Assembly (NCBI GenBank): GCA_046318155.1
Contig: JBKCUU010000047.1
Coordinates: 1-64,000 of the forward strand
Direction: 5' to 3'
Source of the DNA: Bdellovibrio sp.
Lineage (GTDB): Bacteria; Bdellovibrionota; Bdellovibrionia; Bdellovibrionales; Bdellovibrionaceae
DNA: 64,000 nt
Below, piece after piece: positions 30,468-57,675 of this stretch. Each line of letters starts with the position of its first letter. Position 1 is the stretch's first letter. Under the pieces are notes generated by a model that did no database searches, had not been told where the DNA came from, and was given only the letters and a program-made list of their open reading frames with translations. The translations under genes and the position numbers were made by a program.

Positions 30468-31493
30468 TTGTCTTCAAGACCCCAGGCTCCCCTCCAGCCC
30501 AAGTTGTTTCTCGCGCCGATGGAAGGCGTGATGGATCACTTCATGCGTGATGTGCTCACGCGCTTGGGCGGTATTGATCAAACCGTGTGTGAGTTTATTC
30601 GTATTACCGATCAAACGACGCCGGATGCTGTGTTTTTTCGGGATGCGCCCGAACTTAAAAACCAAAGCCGCACACCTGCGGGCACACCCGTTTTCATTCA
30701 ACTCTTGGGCGGTGATGTTTTGCGCTTAGCTGAACATGCCCGCATCGCTGTGCGCTTGGGCGCCATCGGTGTGGACCTTAACTTTGGCTGCCCAGCGAAG
30801 ACCGTGAACCGGCACGATGGCGGCGCCACTCTGCTTTTGTATCCTGAACGGATGCAAAAAATTGTGCGCGCGGTTCGTGATGCCGTTCCCGCTCACATCC
30901 CGGTGACGGCAAAAATTCGCTTGGGATTTACCGACCCGTCTGCGTGCATTGAGAGCGCCTCGGCCGTGGCCGCAGGTGGTGCCGACTGGATCACGGTTCA
31001 TTGCCGTACAAAAATGGACATGTACAAGCCGCCGGCTTACTGGAATTGGATTCCCGAAATCAAGAAACACCTTCAGATTCCCGTGATTGCCAATGGGGAC
31101 ATTTTCAATGTTCAAGACTTAAAGGCCTGCGCCGAAGTCACCGGGTGCGATCAGTTTATGATTGGCCGAGGCGCGCTGATCGATCCGTTTATCTTTTGCA
31201 AAATTAAAGGCCTCGACGTTGATTCGTCGTGGAGAGCCGTGGTCCGCTTGGTGCAAGATTTTTTTGTTCGCACGCGGGATGAGGTCTCACCGGCTTTTGC
31301 CCAAGCAAGAACAAAACAATGGCTGCGAGAACTGGCCAAGGGACACCATCCACAAGCCAAACTCCTGTTCGATGAAATCAAAGTTCTTCGTGACCCCGAA
31401 CTTTTGTATTCTCGCTTGCTTATGGCTTTGCCACAGACGAGCGAACTGACGAGCGAAGGGCCGTCACCACGGGTGACCACAACTCCAACGTAA
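30468..31493 (+). CDS. dusC: tRNA-dihydrouridine synthase, DusC-like
   Basis: LAPMEG, DLNFGCPAKTVN, VTAKIRLG, YKPPAYW, ANGDI. Confidence 0.88.
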   Translation: MSSRPQAPLQPKLFLAPMEGVMDHFMRDVLTRLGGIDQTVCEFIRITDQTTPDAVFFRDAPELKNQSRTPAGTPVFIQLLGGDVLRLAEHARIAVRLGAIGVDLNFGCPAKTVNRHDGGATLLLYPERMQKIVRAVRDAVPAHIPVTAKIRLGFTDPSACIESASAVAAGGADWITVHCRTKMDMYKPPAYWNWIPEIKKHLQIPVIANGDIFNVQDLKACAEVTGCDQFMIGRGALIDPFIFCKIKGLDVDSSWRAVVRLVQDFFVRTRDEVSPAFAQARTKQWLRELAKGHHPQAKLLFDEIKVLRDPELLYSRLLMALPQTSELTSEGPSPRVTTTPT

Positions 31494-32085
31494 ATCCAGA
31501 GTCCTGGGCGATCCAAGCCATCGTCTGGCTCGACGGAAAGAGAATGTGCGTATTGTCACGCGCGTACCACCAGTTTTCAAAATCCGCGGGCCTCAGCTCT
31601 GTGCGAATGACCAGCCGGCCACCCGCTCGCAGTTGCTGCTTGATTTTTTCAAGCTCCGTGCGCGGTTCACGCAGGTGCTCAAAAACCTCGTGCAAGAGAA
31701 TCAGATCAAAATCACCGGTGGGCCGCAGAGGCTGAAAGTACGGGTCAAAGAGTGAAACCTCATAGCCGGCTTCGGTCAAAAGCTGGGCCATCGAAGGCTC
31801 GGGGCCCGAGCCATAATCCAAAATTTTTAAGGGAGGCTGAGCGTGCTGAACGAGAAGATCCACAGTTTTCATCAGGAACTCGCGAAAGCCCCGTTGGCCC
31901 AAGTCATTGTGATGGGTCTCGTAACGCGCGCGTTCGTTCTCGGGAGTGATTTGATCTTGGGAAGGAACAAAAAAGAGATCACAATCGGGACATTGAAAAA
32001 AGCGGCGCTCTTTCCAAGCCCGGTGCTTCCTAAGCCCAAAAGGTCCCGGCCCCCGACACAAGGGGCACACAGACGATAGATTCAA
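31420..32085 (-). CDS. Class I SAM-dependent methyltransferase with N-terminal zinc ribbon (start uncertain)
   Basis: CPLC..CPDC, ERARYETHHN, LDYGSGP, EVFEH, WWYARDNTH. Confidence 0.85.
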   Translation of the reverse strand: MNLSSVCPLCRGPGPFGLRKHRAWKERRFFQCPDCDLFFVPSQDQITPENERARYETHHNDLGQRGFREFLMKTVDLLVQHAQPPLKILDYGSGPEPSMAQLLTEAGYEVSLFDPYFQPLRPTGDFDLILLHEVFEHLREPRTELEKIKQQLRAGGRLVIRTELRPADFENWWYARDNTHILFPSSQTMAWIAQDSGFTLELWSPVVTALRSSVRSSVAKP

Positions 32086-32164
32086 AGTTTCTGGTACAGA
32101 AGAAGATGAAATTACCACGTAGACGCCCCTTTCTTCAGCTGTTACAAACTGGACAGATAAAGTT

Positions 32165-32210
32165 TGCCGCACCAAAGGTGCGCGTTTTACTGCCGCACCA
32201 AAGGTGCGGC
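32165..32210. repeat. Two tandem 18-bp copies TGCCGCACCAAAGGTGCG, each a hairpin
   Basis: Copies at 32165-32182 and 32191-32208. Confidence 0.85.
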
Positions 32211-32221
32211 CGGGAGGCCTC

Positions 32222-32476
32222 ATGGCTCATGTGAAAATGTACACCAAAGATCCTTGTCCCTACTGCGTTCGCGCCAAAGCCTTTTTAAATGAGAAGGGCG
32301 TGCAAGTCGAGGAAATCGATCTGACCGACGACTTTGAAACCCTAAACCGCCTCAAAAACGAAACGGGCTGGCGGACGGTCCCCATGATTTTCATCGGCGA
32401 AAAACTCGTCGGCGGCTACAGCGACCTCAAGGCTCTCGATGACGAAGGCAAACTCGACGACCTACTCAAGGCGTAA
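32222..32476 (+). CDS. grxC: Glutaredoxin 3
   Basis: CPYC, RTVP.IFIG, GGYSDL; GGAGG RBS. Confidence 0.92.
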   Translation: MAHVKMYTKDPCPYCVRAKAFLNEKGVQVEEIDLTDDFETLNRLKNETGWRTVPMIFIGEKLVGGYSDLKALDDEGKLDDLLKA

Positions 32477-33482
32477 ACTTGGTTGGCCTCAGGCGGTCGC
32501 GTACGAGTGAGATCAAAATTGACCCCCCGATCAAGAGAGCAATGATTGCCAGTGACCAGCTAATGGGGAACTTGCCGCCGAACACATCGTTTAAGTAGAC
32601 CATCTTCAGACCAACAAAAATAAGCACACAGGCCAGACCGTACTTAATGAAGGCAAAGCGGTCCATCACGCCTGCGAGCATAAAGTACATCGAGCGCAGA
32701 CCCAGGATCGCAAAAATATTAGACGTGAACACAATCAAAGGTTCTTTGGTCAATGCAAAAATCGCAGGAACTGAGTCCACCGCAAAAATGATGTCACTCA
32801 GCTCTAAAAAAACCAGAGCCAGAAAAAGAGGCGTGACGTAAGTCAGGCCATTGATTTTGATAAAGAAATTTTGACCCTCAATTTTGGGATGAACTCGCAA
32901 AACCTTCTTTAAGCCCCGTACGATAATATTGGTGTCTAAGCTCTTTTGCTCGGTCCCTGCAAAAAACATTTTGATTCCAGTCAGAATCAGCAAGCCGCCA
33001 AAAAATAAGACGATCCATTTGTACTCCATCAACACAGAACCCATCGCAATAAAGACCGCGCGGAAAAAAAGCGCGCCAAGAATTCCCCAGAATAAAACTC
33101 GATGCTGATAGATTTTTGGAATGCCGAAATAGGCAAAGACGACCGCAAAGACAAAAATATTGTCGACGGCCAACGACTTTTCGACAACGAAACCTGTTAA
33201 GAACTCAAGCGCCGTCGTCTTCGCCTGCCCATCAGGATCGAAATTGGGAATTTGCAGATAGCGTGGGTCGGTCGAAAAGCGAAACTGGGCGTAAAGATAG
33301 AACAGGTAATTGAACACCAAGGCCATGGCGATCCAAAGCGAGGTCCAAACTGAAGCCTCCTTAAAACTCACTTCGTGAGCTTCTTTGTGAAAGACGCCGA
33401 GATCAAGCGCAAGGACGATAAGAACGAAAACGGTAAACCCGAGGTAGAACCACCAATAGTCAGCAAACGGAAATAGGATCAT
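32466..33482 (-). CDS. TerC/Alx family membrane protein
   Basis: EKSLAVDNIFVF, YQHRVLFWGILGAL, DIIFAVDSVPAIF, SNIFAILGLR. Confidence 0.95.
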   Translation of the reverse strand: MILFPFADYWWFYLGFTVFVLIVLALDLGVFHKEAHEVSFKEASVWTSLWIAMALVFNYLFYLYAQFRFSTDPRYLQIPNFDPDGQAKTTALEFLTGFVVEKSLAVDNIFVFAVVFAYFGIPKIYQHRVLFWGILGALFFRAVFIAMGSVLMEYKWIVLFFGGLLILTGIKMFFAGTEQKSLDTNIIVRGLKKVLRVHPKIEGQNFFIKINGLTYVTPLFLALVFLELSDIIFAVDSVPAIFALTKEPLIVFTSNIFAILGLRSMYFMLAGVMDRFAFIKYGLACVLIFVGLKMVYLNDVFGGKFPISWSLAIIALLIGGSILISLVRDRLRPTKFTP

Positions 33483-33556
33483 GTTGAGAGATCTCCTTTA
33501 CATGAAAGATAGCCCACCTTATGATAGCTTTCAAATCGATAATTTATTAGGCTTCT

Positions 33557-33571
33557 ATCGTAAAATACGAT
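33557..33571. promoter_or_regulatory. LysR-type T-N11-A palindromic operator between terC and the divergent LysR gene
   Basis: ATCG-TAAAATA-CGAT. Confidence 0.6.
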
Positions 33572-33590
33572 GCATCAAAGCGAGGCTCGC

Positions 33591-34475
33591 ATGAATATTT
33601 GGATCAACTATCATCACCTTTTTTATTTCAAAACGATCGCCGAAGAAGGAAGTGTCTCGAAAGCCGCCCAAAAATTGAACCTTGGCCAGCCCACGCTTTC
33701 AGCTCAGCTCAAGCAATTTGAAGAAACCATTGGCGTTCAACTTTTTGATCGACAACACAAAAAACTAATTCTGACCGAGCAAGGAAAAATCGCGCTGGAT
33801 TACGCCAAGACGATTTTTCGAATGGGGTCTGAGATGTTTGAGGTTCTGCACGACAGACTTAGACCCTTGAGACCGTCTTTTCACCTCGGTGCCCTTGATA
33901 GCATCCCTAAACAAATCATTCTGCAAATTGTGAAACATGCCTTTAAAATTTCGGATTGCCAGGTGACGCTCTCGGAGGGGCGCCCAGACGAACTGCTTCG
34001 AGCGCTCGGAGCGCACCAGGTCGATCTCATTCTTTCGAACTTTATTCCAGCAGGAGTTTCAGCGAAAGGGCTTTTTCCCAAGACCATTAGTACAAAACCC
34101 GTTTCCTTTTACGGGGCTCCTAGCTTTAAGGTCTATCGAAAAGGCTTTCCACAGTCGTTGTCTGGCTTACCTTTGATTCTTCCGACTTATGATAGCAAGC
34201 TCAGGCAGGATATCGAGCACTGGGGCAAGCTCCATAAAATGGAACTCAACATCATCGTCGAGAGCCAAGACATTGCGATTAAGAAAATGATGGCGATGAG
34301 TGGACTTGGGGTCATCGCAGCTGCAAGCCACACCGTCACCGGCCAGGTCCTGCGCGGCGAGCTCAATGAGATTGGACCTTTGGCTGGCGTCTCCGAGAAC
34401 CTCTACCTCATCAGCGCCCAGAGAAAAATCGAGAACCCGATCGCAGGGAAGCTGATGCAGAGTTTTGTCGTTTAG
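33591..34475 (+). CDS. LysR family regulator (NhaR-like)
   Basis: INYHHLFYFKTIAEEGSVSKAA..L...QPTLSAQLK. Confidence 0.92.
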   Translation: MNIWINYHHLFYFKTIAEEGSVSKAAQKLNLGQPTLSAQLKQFEETIGVQLFDRQHKKLILTEQGKIALDYAKTIFRMGSEMFEVLHDRLRPLRPSFHLGALDSIPKQIILQIVKHAFKISDCQVTLSEGRPDELLRALGAHQVDLILSNFIPAGVSAKGLFPKTISTKPVSFYGAPSFKVYRKGFPQSLSGLPLILPTYDSKLRQDIEHWGKLHKMELNIIVESQDIAIKKMMAMSGLGVIAAASHTVTGQVLRGELNEIGPLAGVSENLYLISAQRKIENPIAGKLMQSFVV

Positions 34476-34682
34476 CTTTAAAAGATGAGATGCATTTGTG
34501 CATATCAAGCATGCATTTATCGTTGTTTACAAGACGGATTTTTCTGACGAAGCTCAATCAAGCAAGTTCGCGACAGGAGGTGTCTTCTTTATGTTGTTTT
34601 GAACACCTATTCAAATAAACTAAACAATCCAATTCGTGCTTGGATCTGCCGCTATTTCTTCAACCAAAACCTTTAAGGGAAA

Positions 34683-35246
34683 ATGTCTATGAAATATTTT
34701 TTGTGCCTCCTTGTTCTGATAGGCTCAACGGCGCAAGCCGAGAGCTTAAGTCTTGCCGACTCAGGAATCAAAGTGAACGTTCTTTGGCCAATTTATCCGG
34801 GCAATAGGTACCGAGTAGCGTGGCGCTACGCTCTCCACTCTGGTGACTCATACCGGACGGAGCTTAACTTAGGTCTCGGGTATACGGGAGAGGAAGATAG
34901 AAAAACAGAAGGGAAATTTTCTGAGGTTCATGCCATTTTGGGAGTTCGTCAATACTTTGGCTCGGCCTTCCATGGCGAATTAAACGTCAATCCCGGTCAA
35001 TCTCAACTAAAAGATCATGTCACGAAAAAGAAAGACTATACGAGCACAGATCTCGAGGTTCAGGCCTTTCTTGGATATGAATGGAGGCTCAGCAAGAGCT
35101 TTACTCTTGATTTACAAGCGGGCGCGGTACAAGTGGTTTCTAAAACCAATTATTGGCCCGTGTATGAAGACGATGACCTCGCCAAGGAACTTGATGGAGA
35201 ACCCATTGTTCCTGTGGGTCTAGTCAATGTAACCTATTGGTTCTAG
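34683..35246 (+). CDS. Putative outer-membrane beta-barrel protein
   Basis: Signal peptide, alternating beta pattern, C-terminal YWF. Confidence 0.65.
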   Translation: MSMKYFLCLLVLIGSTAQAESLSLADSGIKVNVLWPIYPGNRYRVAWRYALHSGDSYRTELNLGLGYTGEEDRKTEGKFSEVHAILGVRQYFGSAFHGELNVNPGQSQLKDHVTKKKDYTSTDLEVQAFLGYEWRLSKSFTLDLQAGAVQVVSKTNYWPVYEDDDLAKELDGEPIVPVGLVNVTYWF

Positions 35247-35325
35247 AAGACGACAGGTCATGGATATGAGATGAGAGAAGGGGACAAGAAAATAAAGCTC
35301 TTTTAACCTTCTTTCTTCTCGATGG

Positions 35326-36180
35326 TTATGTTTTGAACACACTCTTCACCCAGCCCCAGGCGGCATCGACATGGGGAAGTCTCCTCACAGCTTTAGGTGA
35401 GGCCATGTAAAGCTCGGCAGGCAGATTTGGCCAGCTATCCACTTCGATCAAGTTTAAAGTTCTCAAATGTAAACCAAAGACTTCTGGGAGGAGGAGGACC
35501 CCCGCACCCCTTTCTGCAGCAATCAGATTTGAGGCAAGTCGATTTGAAATCAGGCGAATTTGAATCGAATCAAACTGTGGAGACATTTTTTTTAAGAGCG
35601 AAACCTCGTTTTGCATGCACAGGATGGGGAGACTTGTCAGCTGAACCTTGCCGGAGTCTGAGGTGAAGATCTTGTGTCCGAAAAATTTGAGGGGTGAATA
35701 TGTCAGCCGTAAGTTAAATGTCTCCCCCCTCGCCGGTTTATCGACCAGTATCGCGATATCACATTCAAGCCTGTTAAGATCGAAATCTTTGTTTGTGGTG
35801 CTCAAGCGAATTCGAACCATCGGGTATTTATTTAAAAAATCGGGAACATGAGGCGCCAACATTCGATCTGCAATTGCGCTAGTGCAAGAAATATGCACTT
35901 CACCCGAAGGCACTCGATTTTCTGTACTTTCGAAGTTTCGTACACGTGAAACCAGAAGTTCAATTTTTTCTGCTGTCTCCAGCAATTCTTTGACCAATTG
36001 AGTGGGTTCAAGCCCCGAGCGATGGCGAGAGAATAGATTTTTGCCAACTTTAGCCTCGAGAGCTTGCAGTTGCCGAGAGATGGTCGACTGGTCGATTCCC
36101 ATTTTTTTTGCCGCTGAGGAAATCGTTTGAGCTCTTGTTAGCTCCAGAAGAAAAACGAGATCATCAGCTGTGAAGCGCAT
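35326..36180 (-). CDS. LysR family regulator
   Basis: ISSAAKKMGIDQSTISRQLQALE HTH; substrate-binding domain. Confidence 0.9.
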   Translation of the reverse strand: MRFTADDLVFLLELTRAQTISSAAKKMGIDQSTISRQLQALEAKVGKNLFSRHRSGLEPTQLVKELLETAEKIELLVSRVRNFESTENRVPSGEVHISCTSAIADRMLAPHVPDFLNKYPMVRIRLSTTNKDFDLNRLECDIAILVDKPARGETFNLRLTYSPLKFFGHKIFTSDSGKVQLTSLPILCMQNEVSLLKKMSPQFDSIQIRLISNRLASNLIAAERGAGVLLLPEVFGLHLRTLNLIEVDSWPNLPAELYMASPKAVRRLPHVDAAWGWVKSVFKT

Positions 36181-36319
36181 TGACGAGTCTCAAATTTTTA
36201 TGTTTCTCAGGGCTTTGACAAGCAGGCATTTGTACATATTTACCATGCATTTATGTGTGTTTACAAGGTGGATTGTTCTGCCGAAAATCAATCAAGGTCA
36301 CAACGGGAGGGTTTGCTTA

Positions 36320-36934
36320 ATGTCAGGTTTTTTAAAACATATTCTATTTTTCATTCTTTTTGTCAGTTTTGGTTCCAAGAGCATGGCAGGCCAGCTCACC
36401 TTGGGAGCGGATTTGATTCAGCCATTTGTGCTTGGTGGCTGGAACCTCAATGGGTACTACTACTTTGATAATGGCTTGGTTTTTGGCTGGTCGCATGGGG
36501 ATAATCTCGAAATGTCTTTTGAGGATTCTTTTGCACCTGATCCTATTAAGGATGCTAAGGCTTCAGTATTCACAGACTGGTCCACCGGACCTGAGCTCGG
36601 ATACAGGCTGGGGAAGAACTGGGATGTGAGAATGGACTTCAAAGCACATTACAATCGAGTTAAATTTGATTCGAACCCAGCACCGATCAGGTACACCCTG
36701 TACACCGTTGGGCCAAGTGTATTTTATAATTGGTTTCCTTTTTCAGCCGATACTAACGGTTTTCTTGTTCAGTTCTCTGCCCGTTATTGGGTTGAAGTTG
36801 ATGATGACTTCAATGACGATAATTTCACTTACATCGACAAAAACGGAAACACCAAAAAGCATGATCCGAGGGATTTCTGGGATGGTGGGATCAGTGGTTT
36901 TGGTTTAAACGTCGCATTTGGCTGGGCATTTTAA
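36320..36934 (+). CDS. Putative outer-membrane beta-barrel protein
   Basis: Signal peptide, beta pattern, C-terminal GWAF; GGAGG RBS. Confidence 0.65.
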   Translation: MSGFLKHILFFILFVSFGSKSMAGQLTLGADLIQPFVLGGWNLNGYYYFDNGLVFGWSHGDNLEMSFEDSFAPDPIKDAKASVFTDWSTGPELGYRLGKNWDVRMDFKAHYNRVKFDSNPAPIRYTLYTVGPSVFYNWFPFSADTNGFLVQFSARYWVEVDDDFNDDNFTYIDKNGNTKKHDPRDFWDGGISGFGLNVAFGWAF

Positions 36935-36981
36935 TCACATGAACAAAAGCAATCAAATCTGCTTTTCCGGCACTTCGGCGC

Positions 36982-37123
36982 CCTCCGCGGCGAGCTCAAG
37001 GAGATTGGACCTTTGGCGCGGGCGTCTCCGAAAACCTCTACCTCATCAGCGCCCCGAGAAGAATTGAGAACCAGATCGCAGTAAAGCTCATGCAGAGTTT
37101 TGTTGTATAGCTTTAAACGATGA
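36982..37123 (+). pseudogene. Degenerate duplicate of the 3' end of LysR 33591-34475 (direct repeat of 34349-34488)
   Basis: About 140 bp aligning with roughly 14 substitutions and a 2-nt insertion (counted by eye). Confidence 0.9.
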
Positions 37124-37211
37124 TGTGCATATTTCTTATGCATTTTAACATTCCTATAAAATCACCGATCCTTTAAGTAAGCGCAGGATGCGCAAACTCA
37201 AAGGAGATCAC

Positions 37212-38348
37212 ATGCAAAGTATCAAATCCTCTTTAAAGCCTCTTATCGAATCCTCGCATGGCGTTCACGTCACAATCTACATGGTGAACGAGGGTGGACA
37301 AGAAAATATCATGCGCCAACTTCGACAATCGCTCGAAGAAGCCCACGACTTCCTTCAGCCCGTCATGTCTTTGCAGGAGCGGCAGATGCTTCTTGCTCCG
37401 CTCGATCATTTATTAGTTGAGGGACACGTTTTTCACCACATGCAGGGAAATATCGGCCTCTTCCGCACGAAAGACTCCTTTCGCATTTTGAGCATCCCCG
37501 TTGACATGCCTCGCAGTGTCCATGTCGCGACGACTTTTCATGTCAAGCCTTTGCTGCAATGGATTCAGGTCGACCAAGAATACTTTTTGCTTGGACTTGA
37601 TGGTCAACAGGCCCATCTTTACATCGGCAACTATCACTCCATCCAGTTGATTGAGTCCATCGCTTGCCCGCTCCAGAGCGGTCTTGCGGATAGCGCGAGC
37701 TTGGCAAAAAAAGGCGACGACGAAGAGATCTTGAGTGGTGAAATCCCTGTTTGGATCAGGAGCTGGATTTGGCAGCGAGCAAGCAAGACGAATCCTCTTT
37801 TTTTTATTGCTGGGCCCCCGGCCTATTGCCGACAAATTTTTAAAGGCATCAAGTACCATCGGACCGTCCGCGAGCCTCTTTTGACAAGCTTTTCGAAACC
37901 GGCTCTCGAAAGCTGCACCTCTGCGATCCAAGACTATCTAGAAAGTCATGCTCACCGTGAACTCGCTTCAGCGCTCGTCGAATATGAAGTCGCGTCCGAA
38001 GAAAATCGGACCCGGCGAAATATCTTTCAGATCGCAAAGGCGGCAGCGCTCGGAAAAGTACGCAAGCTCATTATCGCCAAGGACACCGTTATTCACGGCA
38101 AGTTGGATCTCAGAACTGGGGGCCTTGCGCTTCATCCGTTTGATTTGGACCATGAGGATGACGACATCTTGGATGACTTGGCGCAGGCGGTTCTTGCCCG
38201 CGGCGGCGAGGTGCTCGTTGTTGACAAGGCCCAGTTACCGAAGGGACGCGCGGCTCTGGCAATTCTGGATGAGTCTCTTCATCTGGAGCAATCGCCTTCG
38301 CCTTACCTGGGGTCGGCTCTCAATTCTCGCGGAACACCCCAACTCTAA
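37212..38348 (+). CDS. baeRF3-like (bacterial archaeo-eukaryotic release factor / Balon-like) protein, paralog 1
   Basis: HVTIY, FHVKPLL, IAKAAALGKVRKLII, DDILDDLAQAVLARGGEV (L7Ae-like C-domain); no GGQ in the middle domain. Confidence 0.75.
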   Translation: MQSIKSSLKPLIESSHGVHVTIYMVNEGGQENIMRQLRQSLEEAHDFLQPVMSLQERQMLLAPLDHLLVEGHVFHHMQGNIGLFRTKDSFRILSIPVDMPRSVHVATTFHVKPLLQWIQVDQEYFLLGLDGQQAHLYIGNYHSIQLIESIACPLQSGLADSASLAKKGDDEEILSGEIPVWIRSWIWQRASKTNPLFFIAGPPAYCRQIFKGIKYHRTVREPLLTSFSKPALESCTSAIQDYLESHAHRELASALVEYEVASEENRTRRNIFQIAKAAALGKVRKLIIAKDTVIHGKLDLRTGGLALHPFDLDHEDDDILDDLAQAVLARGGEVLVVDKAQLPKGRAALAILDESLHLEQSPSPYLGSALNSRGTPQL

Positions 38349-38372
38349 CATTTGAATAAACTGGAGAATTTT

Positions 38373-39506
38373 ATGCTCAAATCCACGACAAAAACTCTTT
38401 CGAATTTACTCACCTCTCAAGGCGGTGTTCACCTCACGATCTACTTGAACAATAACGGTGACATCATTGACCTTAAGGATCAGCTCCGAAAACGACTCCT
38501 CGAAGCAAAAGACTGGCTTGAGCCCGTGATGACGCCGGTTCAGCAAGAAAAATTTCTTGAGCCAATCAATGCACTCGTTTTGGACACACGACTTTTAAAA
38601 GACCTTAAGGGGGCTATCGGGCTGTTTAAAAACACCGACTCGTTTCGGTTGCTGGGGATTCCAGGAAGCGTCGATCCGAGCTACCACGTGGCAAGCTCTT
38701 ATCACGTCAAACCGCTCCTTCGTTGGATCCAGACAGATCAAGACTTCATGTTTCTGGGATTTGAAAAAACGCGTGTGCACCTGTACTCTGGAACGCAAAA
38801 TTCATTTAGACTGATCGATTCTGTCTTGTTTCCAGATCTCATTTCAAAATCATTGGACCACGGCGAAGACAATCTCAAAGGAGCACGCCAACAAAAAGCG
38901 CAAGTGAAGCAAACCTTGCTCTGGCTCAATCAATGGATTGCAGAACTCACGGCCCAGTCGATGCCTGCGCTTTTTGTGGCGGGTGAGGCGTCGCTGACAA
39001 AAGAATTCTTCAAGTTCTCCACTTACAAGAATTTGGTCCCGACGGCCTTGTCTGGTTTTTTTAATAAAAACGAAGCTCTCAGCTTTGCTCGGCGCATTCG
39101 AAATCTGCAAAAATCCGAATCTTCAAAAAAATTTGAAGGCGCACTCCAGGATTTTGAAATTGCCGACAAACAGAACCAGGCTTGTTCGGATCTCTTCGAG
39201 ATGACCGCGGCTGCCGTTAGAGGCCAAGTCCAAAAACTGGTCATTGCGGATGACATGAGCCTCTTCGGAAAAGTGGATCATGATTCAGGTGTTCTGACTC
39301 TGCATGCGCATGACCTCAACCACGAGGACGATTGCATTTTAGATGATCTGGCGCAGCTTGTTCTTAACCAAGGCGGGCAAGTGGTGATCGCAAAACAAAA
39401 TCAGATTCCTGACGGGCGCCCGGCACTCGCGATCTTGAATGACGAAAGACCCCAGACAACGGCGCACGCAGGTCTGCACGATGTCCTGCAAGAGAGGTTT
39501 GGATGA
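38373..39506 (+). CDS. baeRF3-like / Balon-like protein, paralog 2
   Basis: HLTIY, YHVKPLL, AAVRGQVQKLVI, DCILDDLAQLVLNQGGQV; collinear with paralog 1. Confidence 0.75.
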   Translation: MLKSTTKTLSNLLTSQGGVHLTIYLNNNGDIIDLKDQLRKRLLEAKDWLEPVMTPVQQEKFLEPINALVLDTRLLKDLKGAIGLFKNTDSFRLLGIPGSVDPSYHVASSYHVKPLLRWIQTDQDFMFLGFEKTRVHLYSGTQNSFRLIDSVLFPDLISKSLDHGEDNLKGARQQKAQVKQTLLWLNQWIAELTAQSMPALFVAGEASLTKEFFKFSTYKNLVPTALSGFFNKNEALSFARRIRNLQKSESSKKFEGALQDFEIADKQNQACSDLFEMTAAAVRGQVQKLVIADDMSLFGKVDHDSGVLTLHAHDLNHEDDCILDDLAQLVLNQGGQVVIAKQNQIPDGRPALAILNDERPQTTAHAGLHDVLQERFG

Positions 39507-39910
39507 ACAAGCTGATCTTGCTCGAAATCTGGAGAAAAGCGCAAACGCAACCGAGAGTCATGCGAAAGCTCAAGATTTTTTTGATCGTCGGCGTCCTGGG
39601 CTGCGTGTTGACAGCAAGTCTTGTCATCTGGGCGGGCATTTCGGCCCTTTCGTTTGTTGTCGGCAAATCAAGAGACCTCATGCAGTCGCCTCAGGTGTCG
39701 GCTCATGTCGAAAAAATGCAAGACCTTCCCGTTCACGCCGTGACATTTCAGCCAGTTGAATGCTGGCAAAGAGCGCTCAGCCTTTTAGCTGTCGAACCTT
39801 GGGTTTTGCAGTCGGCCCTGACTAACTTGCAAAACTTAAAAGCCTCATGCCTTGGCTCGCCAGCTTCCTCAGATTCGATGAACAACTCACCCACCAACAA
39901 GGAGAATTGA
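39503..39910 (+). CDS. Hypothetical single-pass membrane protein
   Basis: One long hydrophobic segment, two C-terminal-domain Cys; ATGA-coupled to the upstream gene. Confidence 0.7.
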   Translation: MNKLILLEIWRKAQTQPRVMRKLKIFLIVGVLGCVLTASLVIWAGISALSFVVGKSRDLMQSPQVSAHVEKMQDLPVHAVTFQPVECWQRALSLLAVEPWVLQSALTNLQNLKASCLGSPASSDSMNNSPTNKEN

Positions 39911-39911
39911 G

Positions 39912-40295
39912 ATGATTCAAATAAAATTTAAAAACCTTGAGAAATCACAATTGGCCAGTGAGGCAGCTTTAGAAAGAATCGAAGGGCTCATCCTGAAATT
40001 CCCTGACCTCGCAAAAAGCCATGTCCAGCTGACCCTCGAAATGCAGAACTCACCCTTTCAAGCCGGTCCTGATCTGTTCAAAATCAAGCTGTGCACCACA
40101 CGGGGACGATACACAGGGATCGTGGTCGAAAAAGAGGATGCGAATCTTTACGTCGCCCTGGCTGAACTGACTGACGACATGCTTGAGGTCCTCAATCGAT
40201 TCGGTGATCGCGAACGCGTAAAAAGACTCAAGCAAGCGCGAACCTTCGTTCGAGAGCTCAAGAAAAAGAGCGTGGACCACGACAAGGCGGGGTGA
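39912..40295 (+). CDS. HPF/RaiA family ribosome-associated protein
   Basis: MIQIKFKNLEKS..., beta-alpha-beta-beta-beta-alpha pattern, EDANLYVAL (cf. DLYAAI). Confidence 0.72.
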   Translation: MIQIKFKNLEKSQLASEAALERIEGLILKFPDLAKSHVQLTLEMQNSPFQAGPDLFKIKLCTTRGRYTGIVVEKEDANLYVALAELTDDMLEVLNRFGDRERVKRLKQARTFVRELKKKSVDHDKAG

Positions 40296-40334
40296 CTGGC
40301 TCTCGTTTCAAGATCATGAGCTGGAGTGGCGAGC

Positions 40335-41420
40335 CTATTCTCTGAGCGCTGTTCGCCGGGTCATCGAGACCCGCGAATTGAAAAAATCGGCCATCGCCTG
40401 CTGAATACTGTCGCCGGATTTCGCTATCATCACGGCTGAAAAAAGGGCGTGACCAAAATCAAGCCATACACTTGTCATTCGCACATGAAAACGAAATTTT
40501 CGCAGCGCCAAGCTTTCGCTGTGGGTTTCGAGCAAGATCATTAAAAGTTGGCGCAAACAACGCCCGTACTCGGCGCCCTCCTCTTCGGGTGTTTGCGGCG
40601 CCCTTTCACCCTCGCGGCCATAGGGAGCCGCAAGCCCCAGGCGCTCACCCACCTGCCACATCATCCAAGGCCGGGCGGCGAGCGCGCGGCCACTCATGGC
40701 GAGATCACACCCGGTTTCTTCAAGAATCTGAAAGACGTCATCGACGGTTTGCACATCGCCATTACCGATGACCGGAATGTTGACGTTCTCGCGAAGGCGC
40801 TTGATCTGATCCCAATCGGCGCTGCCTCGTCTTTTTTGTTCGGCCGTGCGAGGGTGCAAAGTGACCCAAGAGGCCCCGGCGTCTTGAAGTCTGTGAACGA
40901 AGTTAAGTAAAAAATGAAGGTCCCCTTGAGGTCCGGCACGCAACTTGACGCTGACGGGGACCGAACTATTCCTCACCGTCATGCGCACCACTTCGGCCGC
41001 ATAGGCCGGATCACCCATCAGCGCGACGCCATAATTGTGCTTGAGCGCTTTTTGTACGGGGCAGCCCATATTGATATCGATGCCCTCGGCTCCCCACTCG
41101 ATCAGGCGCGCGACGGTTTCTTGAATGGGGCCTTCTTCATTGCCTAAAATTTGCGGCACCAAGCCCGATTCAAAAGGGGCACGCAGGGTTTCGGGCGTTT
41201 GTCCGACTTTTTCTTTGGGGATTTTCCAAGAACTCAGCATTTCGGTGGGCCAAATGGTTTTGGCTCCCGCAGGCAGATAATTTCGTGTGACCAAGCGAAG
41301 CGCCATGTGCGACATCCCAACCATGGGAGCCATACAGAGGGGAAAATTCACCTCCCCGTTCAACAATGAGCGACGTGTCGCCCCAAAGCCGGGGGCACGA
41401 ATTGTCCTTAAGTCTTGCAC
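40335..41420 (-). CDS. tRNA-dihydrouridine synthase family (DusB-like)
   Basis: MAPMVG, IDINMGCPV, VSVKLR, LHPRT, GNGDV. Confidence 0.88.
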   Translation of the reverse strand: MQDLRTIRAPGFGATRRSLLNGEVNFPLCMAPMVGMSHMALRLVTRNYLPAGAKTIWPTEMLSSWKIPKEKVGQTPETLRAPFESGLVPQILGNEEGPIQETVARLIEWGAEGIDINMGCPVQKALKHNYGVALMGDPAYAAEVVRMTVRNSSVPVSVKLRAGPQGDLHFLLNFVHRLQDAGASWVTLHPRTAEQKRRGSADWDQIKRLRENVNIPVIGNGDVQTVDDVFQILEETGCDLAMSGRALAARPWMMWQVGERLGLAAPYGREGERAPQTPEEEGAEYGRCLRQLLMILLETHSESLALRKFRFHVRMTSVWLDFGHALFSAVMIAKSGDSIQQAMADFFNSRVSMTRRTALRE

Positions 41421-56787: not shown

Positions 56788-57675
56788 ATGAAATGGTTCA
56801 AACGCATCTCTTTGTTTCTTCTGACAAACATGCTGGTCTTGGTGACCATCAGCATCGCGCTGGCGGTGATTCAATCGGTCTTTGGCATAAACCTTCATGG
56901 CGGTCAAATGTCTGGACTGATGGTTTTGTGTGCAGTCTGGGGGATGGGCGGCGCCTTTATCTCGCTACTGATTTCAAAGTTCATGGCCAAACGCATGATG
57001 GGTGTCCAGATTATAGACCCAGCCACAGTCAACCCCCGAGAGCGCGAGATCGTGCAAATGGTTTACAACATGGCAACACGCGCGGGCCTCGAAAAGATGC
57101 CCGAGGTCGGTATCTACGAGTCACCCGAGGTGAATGCTTTTGCGACAGGCCCCAGCAAGAAAAACTCACTGGTCGCCGTGAGCACAGGCTTGCTCAGCAA
57201 AATGTCTAAAGATGAAGTCGAAGGTGTCATCGGTCACGAAGTGGCTCACATCGCCAACGGTGACATGGTCACCATGACACTCATCCAAGGTGTTGTGAAT
57301 GCCTTTGTGATGTTCTTTGCACGTCTTGCCGCCAAAGCGATAGCCTCTCAAACAGATGAGCGATCGCAAGGGGCGGTCTACTTTGGCCTGTCGTTGCTCT
57401 TTGATATCGTGTTTGGACTTTTGGGTTCTATTCTGGTCGCTTACTTCTCGCGCTTGCGAGAGTACCGAGCGGATGCGGGCGGAGCGATGTATGCCGGCAA
57501 ACCTAAAATGATTGCGGGTCTTAAGCGCTTGCAATCCATGTATGACCAACTGGAGCCCGACAACGGTTCGATGGCCACAATGAAAATCTCGAGCCGTCCT
57601 GGTGGATTTATGGCTTTCTTCTCGACGCACCCGCCTCTTGAAGAACGGATCCGCCGCCTGCAAGAGACTTTCTAA
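56788..57675 (+). CDS. htpX: Protease HtpX
   Basis: NAFATG, GHEVAHIANGDMVT, SRLREYRAD, STHPPLEERI. Confidence 0.97.
   Translation: MKWFKRISLFLLTNMLVLVTISIALAVIQSVFGINLHGGQMSGLMVLCAVWGMGGAFISLLISKFMAKRMMGVQIIDPATVNPREREIVQMVYNMATRAGLEKMPEVGIYESPEVNAFATGPSKKNSLVAVSTGLLSKMSKDEVEGVIGHEVAHIANGDMVTMTLIQGVVNAFVMFFARLAAKAIASQTDERSQGAVYFGLSLLFDIVFGLLGSILVAYFSRLREYRADAGGAMYAGKPKMIAGLKRLQSMYDQLEPDNGSMATMKISSRPGGFMAFFSTHPPLEERIRRLQETF

Follow-up and report, generated by a model that had tools for sequence, protein, structure and literature searches.

A 64,000-nucleotide stretch of Bdellovibrio sp. DNA (contig JBKCUU010000047.1, positions 1 to 64,000; hereafter the window) carries an operon of four collinear genes encoding two Balon-like homologues of aeRF1 (baeRF-A and baeRF-B), a single-span transmembrane (TM) protein and a divergent protein of the HPF/RaiA fold. 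The pairing of Balon with HPF is known; what differs here is a clade of Balon-like proteins that lacks the decoding-site loop, a distinct HPF subfamily at its side, and a LysR-type promoter element that the operon shares with terC. We propose, and would put at an even chance, that these genes form an accessory stress module in which the Balon-like and HPF-like proteins bind and pause ribosomes when an NhaR-like LysR regulator, responding to alkaline pH or to shortage of CO2/bicarbonate, activates the module together with terC. A role in silencing ribosomes is the best reading. All four genes are intact, with the coordinates, plus-strand orientation and coupling given in an earlier note that took the locus for a ribosome-hibernation operon; the Balon-like and HPF-like folds of that proposal survive, and its paired A-site design, membrane tether and attack-phase role are not supported.

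In the proposed mechanism, the LysR protein would bind both elements and activate two divergent promoters, the HPF-like protein would occupy the tRNA/mRNA channel of the 30S subunit, and a baeRF protein would take the A site, with its C-terminal hairpin and EF-Tu-GDP as the main hold and decoding-site contacts weaker than, or other than, those of Balon. The second baeRF copy would be a lineage-specific addition, and the TM protein a co-regulated envelope protein rather than a tether.

Fold and loops of the Balon-like proteins

The structural model of baeRF-B (predicted local distance difference test, pLDDT, 87) is a three-domain aeRF1-type fold nearest to Balon. Foldseek matches it to Balon chain 8rdw_B with E 6.8e-21 (VIA Z 27.1, root-mean-square deviation 6.0, 347 residues aligned), followed by the mycobacterial homologues Msmeg1130 (23.6) and Rv2629 (20.6), aeRF1 (15.0 or less) and Pelota (Z 12 or less). 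The same fold is assigned to baeRF-A solely through its 37% identity to baeRF-B over 356 residues. A profile built from 99 baeRF relatives finds Balon as its sole clear sequence match in the PDB (8rd8_B, E 9e-10). Against Pfam baeRF_family3 (PF18845, gathering threshold 31.5), baeRF-B scores 39.7 bits and passes, and baeRF-A scores 18.6 and does not. The NCBIfam Balon model NF052287 gives 72 and 81 bits for the pair, under its cut-off of 330; a canonical baeRF3 protein scores 177 and is likewise short of the cut-off, so the model is a narrow one.

To place these proteins in their clade, we used an alignment of 330 sequences comprising the window pair and proteins of at least 320 residues from related loci and databases, along with two canonical baeRF3 proteins. 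At least 80% conservation is reached in 71 columns, of which baeRF-A keeps 63 and baeRF-B 64. Neither protein has a GGQ in its middle domain, the strings at A28 and B334 lying in other domains, and a middle-domain GGQ string occurs in 2 of the 330 relatives; NIKS is absent from the first 130 residues of all 330 sequences. The paralogous pair is in these respects as the earlier note had it, by model for baeRF-B and by sequence for baeRF-A.

What that note overlooked is the missing decoding-centre loop. In Balon, 14 residues that include an HP motif at 27-28 link the first strand to the helix that follows, where baeRF-A and baeRF-B have 7; HP is found at this loop in 0/330 sequences, the short loop length in 295/330, and the baeRF-B model shows a loop of 4 residues. 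MAFFT and hidden Markov model (HMM) alignments put the N-domain gap in different places, and the exact deletion length (7) rests on the motif match past the loop. The stretch that faces the catalytic centre, which may correspond to the lasso loop or bL27 trap region of Balon, spans 42-44 residues in the window pair, compared to 67 in the two canonical baeRF3 proteins; across the clade it ranges from 14 to 49 residues, mostly 44-45, and is poorly conserved. The C-terminal hairpin, the EF-Tu site, is formed in the model by strands 298-301 and 308-311, aligns with Balon without gaps and is flanked by an invariant Gly; together with the acidic segment that follows, it is the best conserved part of the protein, and the invariant columns cluster in the C-terminal domain. 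The clade thus looks like a Balon trimmed at two ribosome contacts with the EF-Tu contact predicted to be intact.

The features shared by the Balon family are given as loss of NIKS with an extended decoding-site loop, loss of GGQ, and the C-terminal hairpin (Suppl. Fig. 5 of PMC10901736), and Balon homologues are described as all carrying the decoding-site insertion (10.1101/2022.11.24.517861). We prefer the name Balon-like because this one defining feature fails. With Balon and RaiA of Psychrobacter urativorans (8RD8/8RDV/8RDW) the system shares the three-domain aeRF1 fold, the lack of NIKS and of a middle GGQ, and the hairpin; it differs in the 7-residue deletion of the HP loop, the shorter middle loop and an NCBIfam score far under the cut-off. 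A Balon gene beside a RaiA/HPF gene and several copies per genome are already on record (PMC10901736; PMC6514570; 2024, 2019), multiple copies being common in Balon carriers; those copies lie at different loci, in contrast to the head-to-tail arrangement here, and the sections consulted name no LysR, terC or SbtA context (PMC10901736). Likeness to baeRF family 3 (PF18845; PMC6514570) extends to the Pfam score of baeRF-B, the HPF neighbour and the lack of a conserved catalytic Gln; in contrast, canonical members score 154-173 bits (two proteins), and the present clade is almost wholly Bdellovibrionota-labelled. One genome of the set holds both types, a canonical long-loop baeRF3 (154 bits, locus L131, G076:C43) coexisting with the trimmed type. 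A literature search, with subscription papers mostly outside its coverage, turned up nothing published on the loop-less clade or on its link to LysR; sequence datasets 3-9 of the Balon paper may include Bdellovibrionota members.

The trimmed loops also suit a different account, in which such baeRF proteins rescue or split ribosomes without catalysis, or keep EF-Tu-GDP on the ribosome, and the HPF-like protein guards the released subunits. The absence of the HP loop from all 330 sequences, the shortened middle loop and the concentration of invariant columns in the C-terminal domain are consistent with it, and Burroughs and Aravind propose both inhibition and Dom34-like rescue for baeRF proteins (PMC6514570). 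However, the modelled structure is nearer to Balon than to Pelota (Z 27 versus 12 or less), and the genes are tightly linked to one for an HPF fold; we consider this account unlikely.

The HPF-like partner and the membrane protein

The last gene was read in the earlier note as HPF/RaiA-like, and the model upholds the fold: a beta-alpha-beta-beta-beta-alpha arrangement of the S30AE type with a long final helix, matching chloroplast pY and RaiA/HPF chains with E 6e-7 to 5e-6. A profile of its relatives matches RaiA (8rd8_D, E 3e-4). The window protein scores 20.5 bits against Pfam S30AE (PF02482), just under the gathering threshold of 23.7, and a precomputed PF02482 match is present in 119/119 relatives among the matches listed, which are annotated RaiA/HPF. 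The family is more conserved than baeRF, with S47, G52, D54, D99, R102 and R110 invariant in 64/64 sequences. Basic residues on the two helices of HPF/RaiA serve in rRNA contact. R22 and R96 are retained here, and the Lys and Arg of helix 2 in 8rd8_D align to H/D89 and E92. The loops of Psychrobacter RaiA and chloroplast PSRP1 line up with the beta2-beta3 loop of this protein, and the RaiA loop anchors at the decoding site according to a 2025 preprint. Same fold and alignable loop notwithstanding, the partner departs from HPF/RaiA/pY in that the charges of helix 2 are changed, the loop and the C-terminal arginines are invariant, and the final helix is long; by sequence, it forms a subfamily apart, strongly conserved and with an extra loop of its own. 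Two further such genes lie in the window genome, one for a canonical HPF (C62) and one for a second copy of the HPF-like protein (C113). No plasmid match was found for the HPF-like protein, and a complex prediction for baeRF-B with the HPF-like protein gave a score of 0.00, which weighs neither way. In a weak S30AE match elsewhere in the window genome (L035, G000:C70), the helix-2-like motif alone is retained.

The lost loop of one protein and the invariant loop of the other allow a speculative and rather improbable idea, namely that the two are a co-evolved pair with swapped roles, the HPF loop supplying the decoding-centre contact that the Balon-like protein has lost, and a LysR protein that senses shortage of CO2/bicarbonate switching the pair on. 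If true, this would link ribosome shutdown in a heterotroph directly to its inorganic-carbon status.

The TM protein has a single span at residues 25-43, and the span lies near the N-terminus in 36/36 aligned sequences, with basic residues ahead of it and two conserved Cys after it. By the positive-inside rule a basic flank marks the cytoplasmic side, and the protein is accordingly predicted to have a short N-terminus in the cytoplasm and a disulfide domain in the periplasm. Neither Pfam nor the ESM Atlas gave a match (usable, in the latter case). The gene is present in 35 and absent from 38 of the 73 loci with enough downstream DNA, the HPF-like gene occurring without it in 31; the two occur together after baeRF in 30/73. 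It stands directly behind a LysR gene in three genomes (G002, G027, G057), in two of which (G002, G027) no baeRF was found with this query, and the basic N-terminal segment is missing in 4/35 TM proteins as called. A tether for ribosomes, which the earlier note thought possible, is therefore unlikely, even through the basic N-terminal helix: the TM gene is optional, the prediction puts the conserved part with its two Cys beyond the cytoplasm, and the gene occurs without baeRF. The YqjD/ElaB/YgaM ribosome inactivators (10.1101/2024.08.16.608256) are likewise small single-span membrane proteins; they are C-tail anchored, in contrast to the window protein, which has most of its chain after the span and no family match.

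The shared LysR-type element and its candidate signal

An NhaR-like LysR gene lies immediately upstream of baeRF in 50/71 loci. It is NhaR-like rather than NhaR as judged by its scores: its best NCBIfam match, and thus its best named family, is NhaR (PRK11062), at 137.6 bits against a cut-off of 219, and the protein is 26.6% identical to E. coli NhaR and 33-34% identical to LysR proteins beside Dab pumps. The upstream regions of baeRF (51) and terC (31) have in common two dyads 31 bp apart, then -35/-10-like hexamers. Position weight matrices (PWMs) were built from 44/51 baeRF-side and 27/31 terC-side regions and scored crosswise; the terC-side matrix placed 51/51 baeRF regions, and the baeRF-side matrix 30/31 terC regions, above the 99th percentile of single-base shuffles. 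A joint matrix, built from relatives with the window left out, finds two sites scoring above 5 in the 2.75 Mb window genome, before terC (20.4) and before baeRF-A (24.6). A strict pattern has 35 matches in 25/201 genomes of the class and 0 in a reversed control, and a close LysR is present in 23 of these 25 genomes. Module genes lie downstream of 25 of the 30 strict matches examined, which stand before terC (13), baeRF (8, 2 of them through one gene), HPF-like (3), TM (1) and other or no genes (5). On the baeRF side the first box overlaps the LysR stop codon, and coding constraint nevertheless fails to explain the element, because the element before terC lies in non-coding DNA and, of the sites before baeRF or HPF-like genes, three (L147, L150, L152) have no LysR gene within 1.5 kb. 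We infer that the LysR protein binds both elements.

The usual gene order is terC, divergent LysR, baeRF, optional TM and HPF-like, often followed by sbtA. In the best 80 of 97 loci, some of them cut by contig ends, the neighbours are HPF-like 63, NhaR-like LysR 57, TerC 40, TM 35, SbtA 16 and HtpX 15, with Zn-ribbon (8), CBS (5), NhaA (4) and beta-carbonic anhydrase (3) rarer; the HPF-like gene follows baeRF in 61/73 loci and is present in 27/29 genomes of the class that carry this baeRF. In 22/80 loci there is a gene for SbtA, NhaA or beta-carbonic anhydrase. A gene like that for metal-independent carbonic anhydrase (245 bits, under the cut-off of 350) lies between box and baeRF in G122, and DUF2309 (DabA-type) pump genes adjoin the two plasmid LysR homologues examined. 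E. coli alx is reported to be induced by alkaline pH. From these neighbours we infer that the regulator may sense alkaline pH or CO2/bicarbonate shortage.

A competing explanation keeps the regulon and the silencing of ribosomes and takes the signal to be Na+, Mn2+ or general envelope stress. NhaR is a sensor of Na+ and the best named family of the regulator; Alx is reported to export Mn2+; and terC (40/80) and htpX (15/80) are as common as, or commoner than, SbtA, NhaA and beta-carbonic anhydrase among the neighbours. We nonetheless hold this explanation to be fairly improbable, as three unrelated inorganic-carbon systems (SbtA, two carbonic anhydrase types and Dab) recur near the regulator or its homologues.

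Several points count against the reading that we prefer. Balon's mechanism cannot be assumed for a clade in which the decoding-centre loop is missing and the catalytic-site loop is short and variable. In helix 2 of the HPF-like protein, Glu (E92, 61/64) stands where Psychrobacter RaiA (8rd8_D) has Arg, and the window copy has Asp at a mostly-His position. The window's own sites fail the strict pattern (no match in the window genome, G000), and the -10 of baeRF-A is weak. The PWM does not score the upstream regions of E. coli nhaA or pgaA, or two Dab-side regions, at the 1% level (for nhaA, 145/500 shuffles score as high), which also sets the system apart from the E. coli NhaR regulon, to which NhaA as a neighbour in 4/80 loci is a point of likeness. 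terC and htpX are as common as, or commoner than, carbon genes near the module, and SbtA, carbonic anhydrase, HtpX and the second HPF-like gene lie elsewhere in the window genome with no strong site. Finally, related genomes are not independent of each other.

Distribution, genomic setting and meaning

The HPF-like gene is found in 43/201 class genomes and in 2/33 of the best-sampled genus (g4), and baeRF matches in 50/201 class and 49/301 phylum genomes; the module is accessory because it is this patchy, reaching about one-fifth of class genomes. Titled relatives are nearly all Bdellovibrionota metagenome-assembled genomes (MAGs), and the module also occurs in MAGs labelled Oligoflexus and Silvanigrellaceae. 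Silvanigrellaceae have free-growing members. Oligoflexus has them as well (PMC7308576). The g4 baeRF matches examined form a separate clade without the element, mostly beside a Host_attach/baeRF12 gene. Loci of this clade (L120-L125, L127, L132) lack HP, are mostly divergent from a stand-alone Host_attach/baeRF12 gene and lie tail to tail with an exopolyphosphatase-like gene (labelled by eye), with beta-carbonic anhydrase nearby in three. The three distant baeRF genes found on plasmids have neither LysR nor terC around them.

These counts bear on the model of the earlier note, in which four genes serve dormancy in the attack phase as a dedicated system, two A-site factors have become specialised and a membrane protein tethers ribosomes. 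The four genes are coupled and intact, both paralogues keep the conserved columns despite 37% identity, TM and HPF-like genes jointly follow baeRF in 30/73 loci, and two baeRF copies surround one LysR gene, each with its own element, in G150, G062 and G119, all of which would be expected of such a system. However, the head-to-tail pair recurs in 0/80 other loci (L066 has an inverted copy 2.6 kb away, L103 a split gene), so that two A-site factors are not supported as a conserved design; TM is absent from 38/73 loci, occurs without baeRF and at times lacks the basic segment; and the patchy distribution, which takes in MAGs from groups with free-growing members, together with a stress-type LysR element shared with terC, argues against an attack-phase role. 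We regard this model as very unlikely. In two quick trees (90 and 26 rows) the two window copies are not sisters, and both have long branches; an approximately unbiased test does not reject their clade (p 0.44).

Long branches, split baeRF genes (L103; two-piece matches) and the 14/47 class genomes that have a close LysR and neither baeRF nor HPF-like gene could instead mean that a mobile LysR-terC cassette carries the baeRF genes along as decaying passengers that have ceased to act on ribosomes. Against this stand the open frames, the 71 conserved columns, the invariant surface residues of the HPF-like protein and the retained promoter element, and we hold it to be highly improbable.

Table 1. 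Features of the module and its surroundings in the window
Feature	Position	Strand	Remarks
terC/Alx-family membrane protein gene	32466-33482	-	TIGR03718 375 bits, above cut-off 246; divergent arm of module
Two-box LysR-type element before terC	33525-33572	-	two ATCG-N7-CGAT-like dyads, 31 bp start to start
NhaR-like LysR regulator gene, likely controller	33591-34475	+	alternative ORF start 33570
Insert, regulator to operon	34476-36960	.	about 2.5 kb; 44% GC; outside recurrent neighbour clusters of related loci
Beta-barrel-like genes within insert	34683-35246, 36317-36934	+, +	
Second LysR gene within insert	35326-36180	-	
Frameshifted duplicate, 3' end of NhaR-like gene	36965-37110	+	88% identity to 34349-34495 over 149 nt; first box over its stop codon
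Two-box LysR-type element before baeRF-A	37106-37153	+	conserved in 51 relatives; PWM 24.6, top site of genome
-35-like hexamer; weak -10-like hexamer	37144-37149; 37167-37172	+	spacing 17 nt
baeRF-A	37212-38348	+	378 aa; Balon-like aeRF1 homologue without HP loop
baeRF-B	38373-39506	+	377 aa; Balon-like aeRF1 homologue, baeRF family 3, without HP loop
Single-span TM protein, no named family	39503-39910	+	135 aa; basic N-terminus, conserved Cys pair beyond span
Divergent HPF/RaiA-fold protein	39912-40295	+	127 aa; conserved beta2-beta3 loop, long C-terminal helix

The TM gene start overlaps the baeRF-B end through ATGA and is followed after its own end by a 1-nt gap to the HPF-like gene; a GGAG-type ribosome site precedes each gene of the operon (Table 1) except the overlapping TM gene. 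A contig assembled from a second sample in the same study (X2, 37856-38493) bridges the baeRF-A/baeRF-B junction without differences, and the regulator-insert, insert-remnant and promoter-A joins are covered by contigs of another study, with no alternative joints seen. Two RNA runs (X19, X20) hold short identical contigs inside baeRF-A and baeRF-B, too little as evidence of transcription. An Rfam search of 32000-41000 gave no match, and a generic promoter and terminator scan gave no plus-strand promoter or terminator, its generic sigma-70 search not returning the 37106-37172 element.

Dus-family tRNA dihydrouridine synthase genes flank the module (30468-31493 and 40335-41420, about 9 kb apart). 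The insert is bounded by the duplicated LysR 3' end (36965-37110 versus 34349-34495), resembling integration into a gene end; the box downstream of the intact LysR gene is decayed, and the remnant copy retains its box. A 71-nt element precedes both beta-barrel-like insert genes (34492-34562 and 36226-36296, 82% identical), has no further copy in the genome, also occurs in a contig of another organism (run X9), and is possibly the site of the second LysR of the insert. A two-base insertion at 35286, between insert genes, is a strain variant in runs X4 and X8. Elsewhere in the window genome, module genes are scattered (C33:3319-4640, C66:4978-6063, C113:52761-53141 and window 56788-57675); the set comprises a divergent pair of Zn-ribbon and sbtA genes that has a degenerate element, another terC gene whose site is weak (10.0 with the terC matrix), the second HPF-like gene, and htpX. 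This genome is 95% complete, and no nhaA was found in it.

Hundreds of proteins without the decoding-site insertion constitute a natural test of which contacts are required for A-site hibernation. Most Balon-type factors are tied only loosely to stress; the shared promoter element offers a trigger for one of them that is concrete and can be tested. High pH and CO2 shortage are common in productive fresh water, and the element suggests that either can call for ribosome shutdown.

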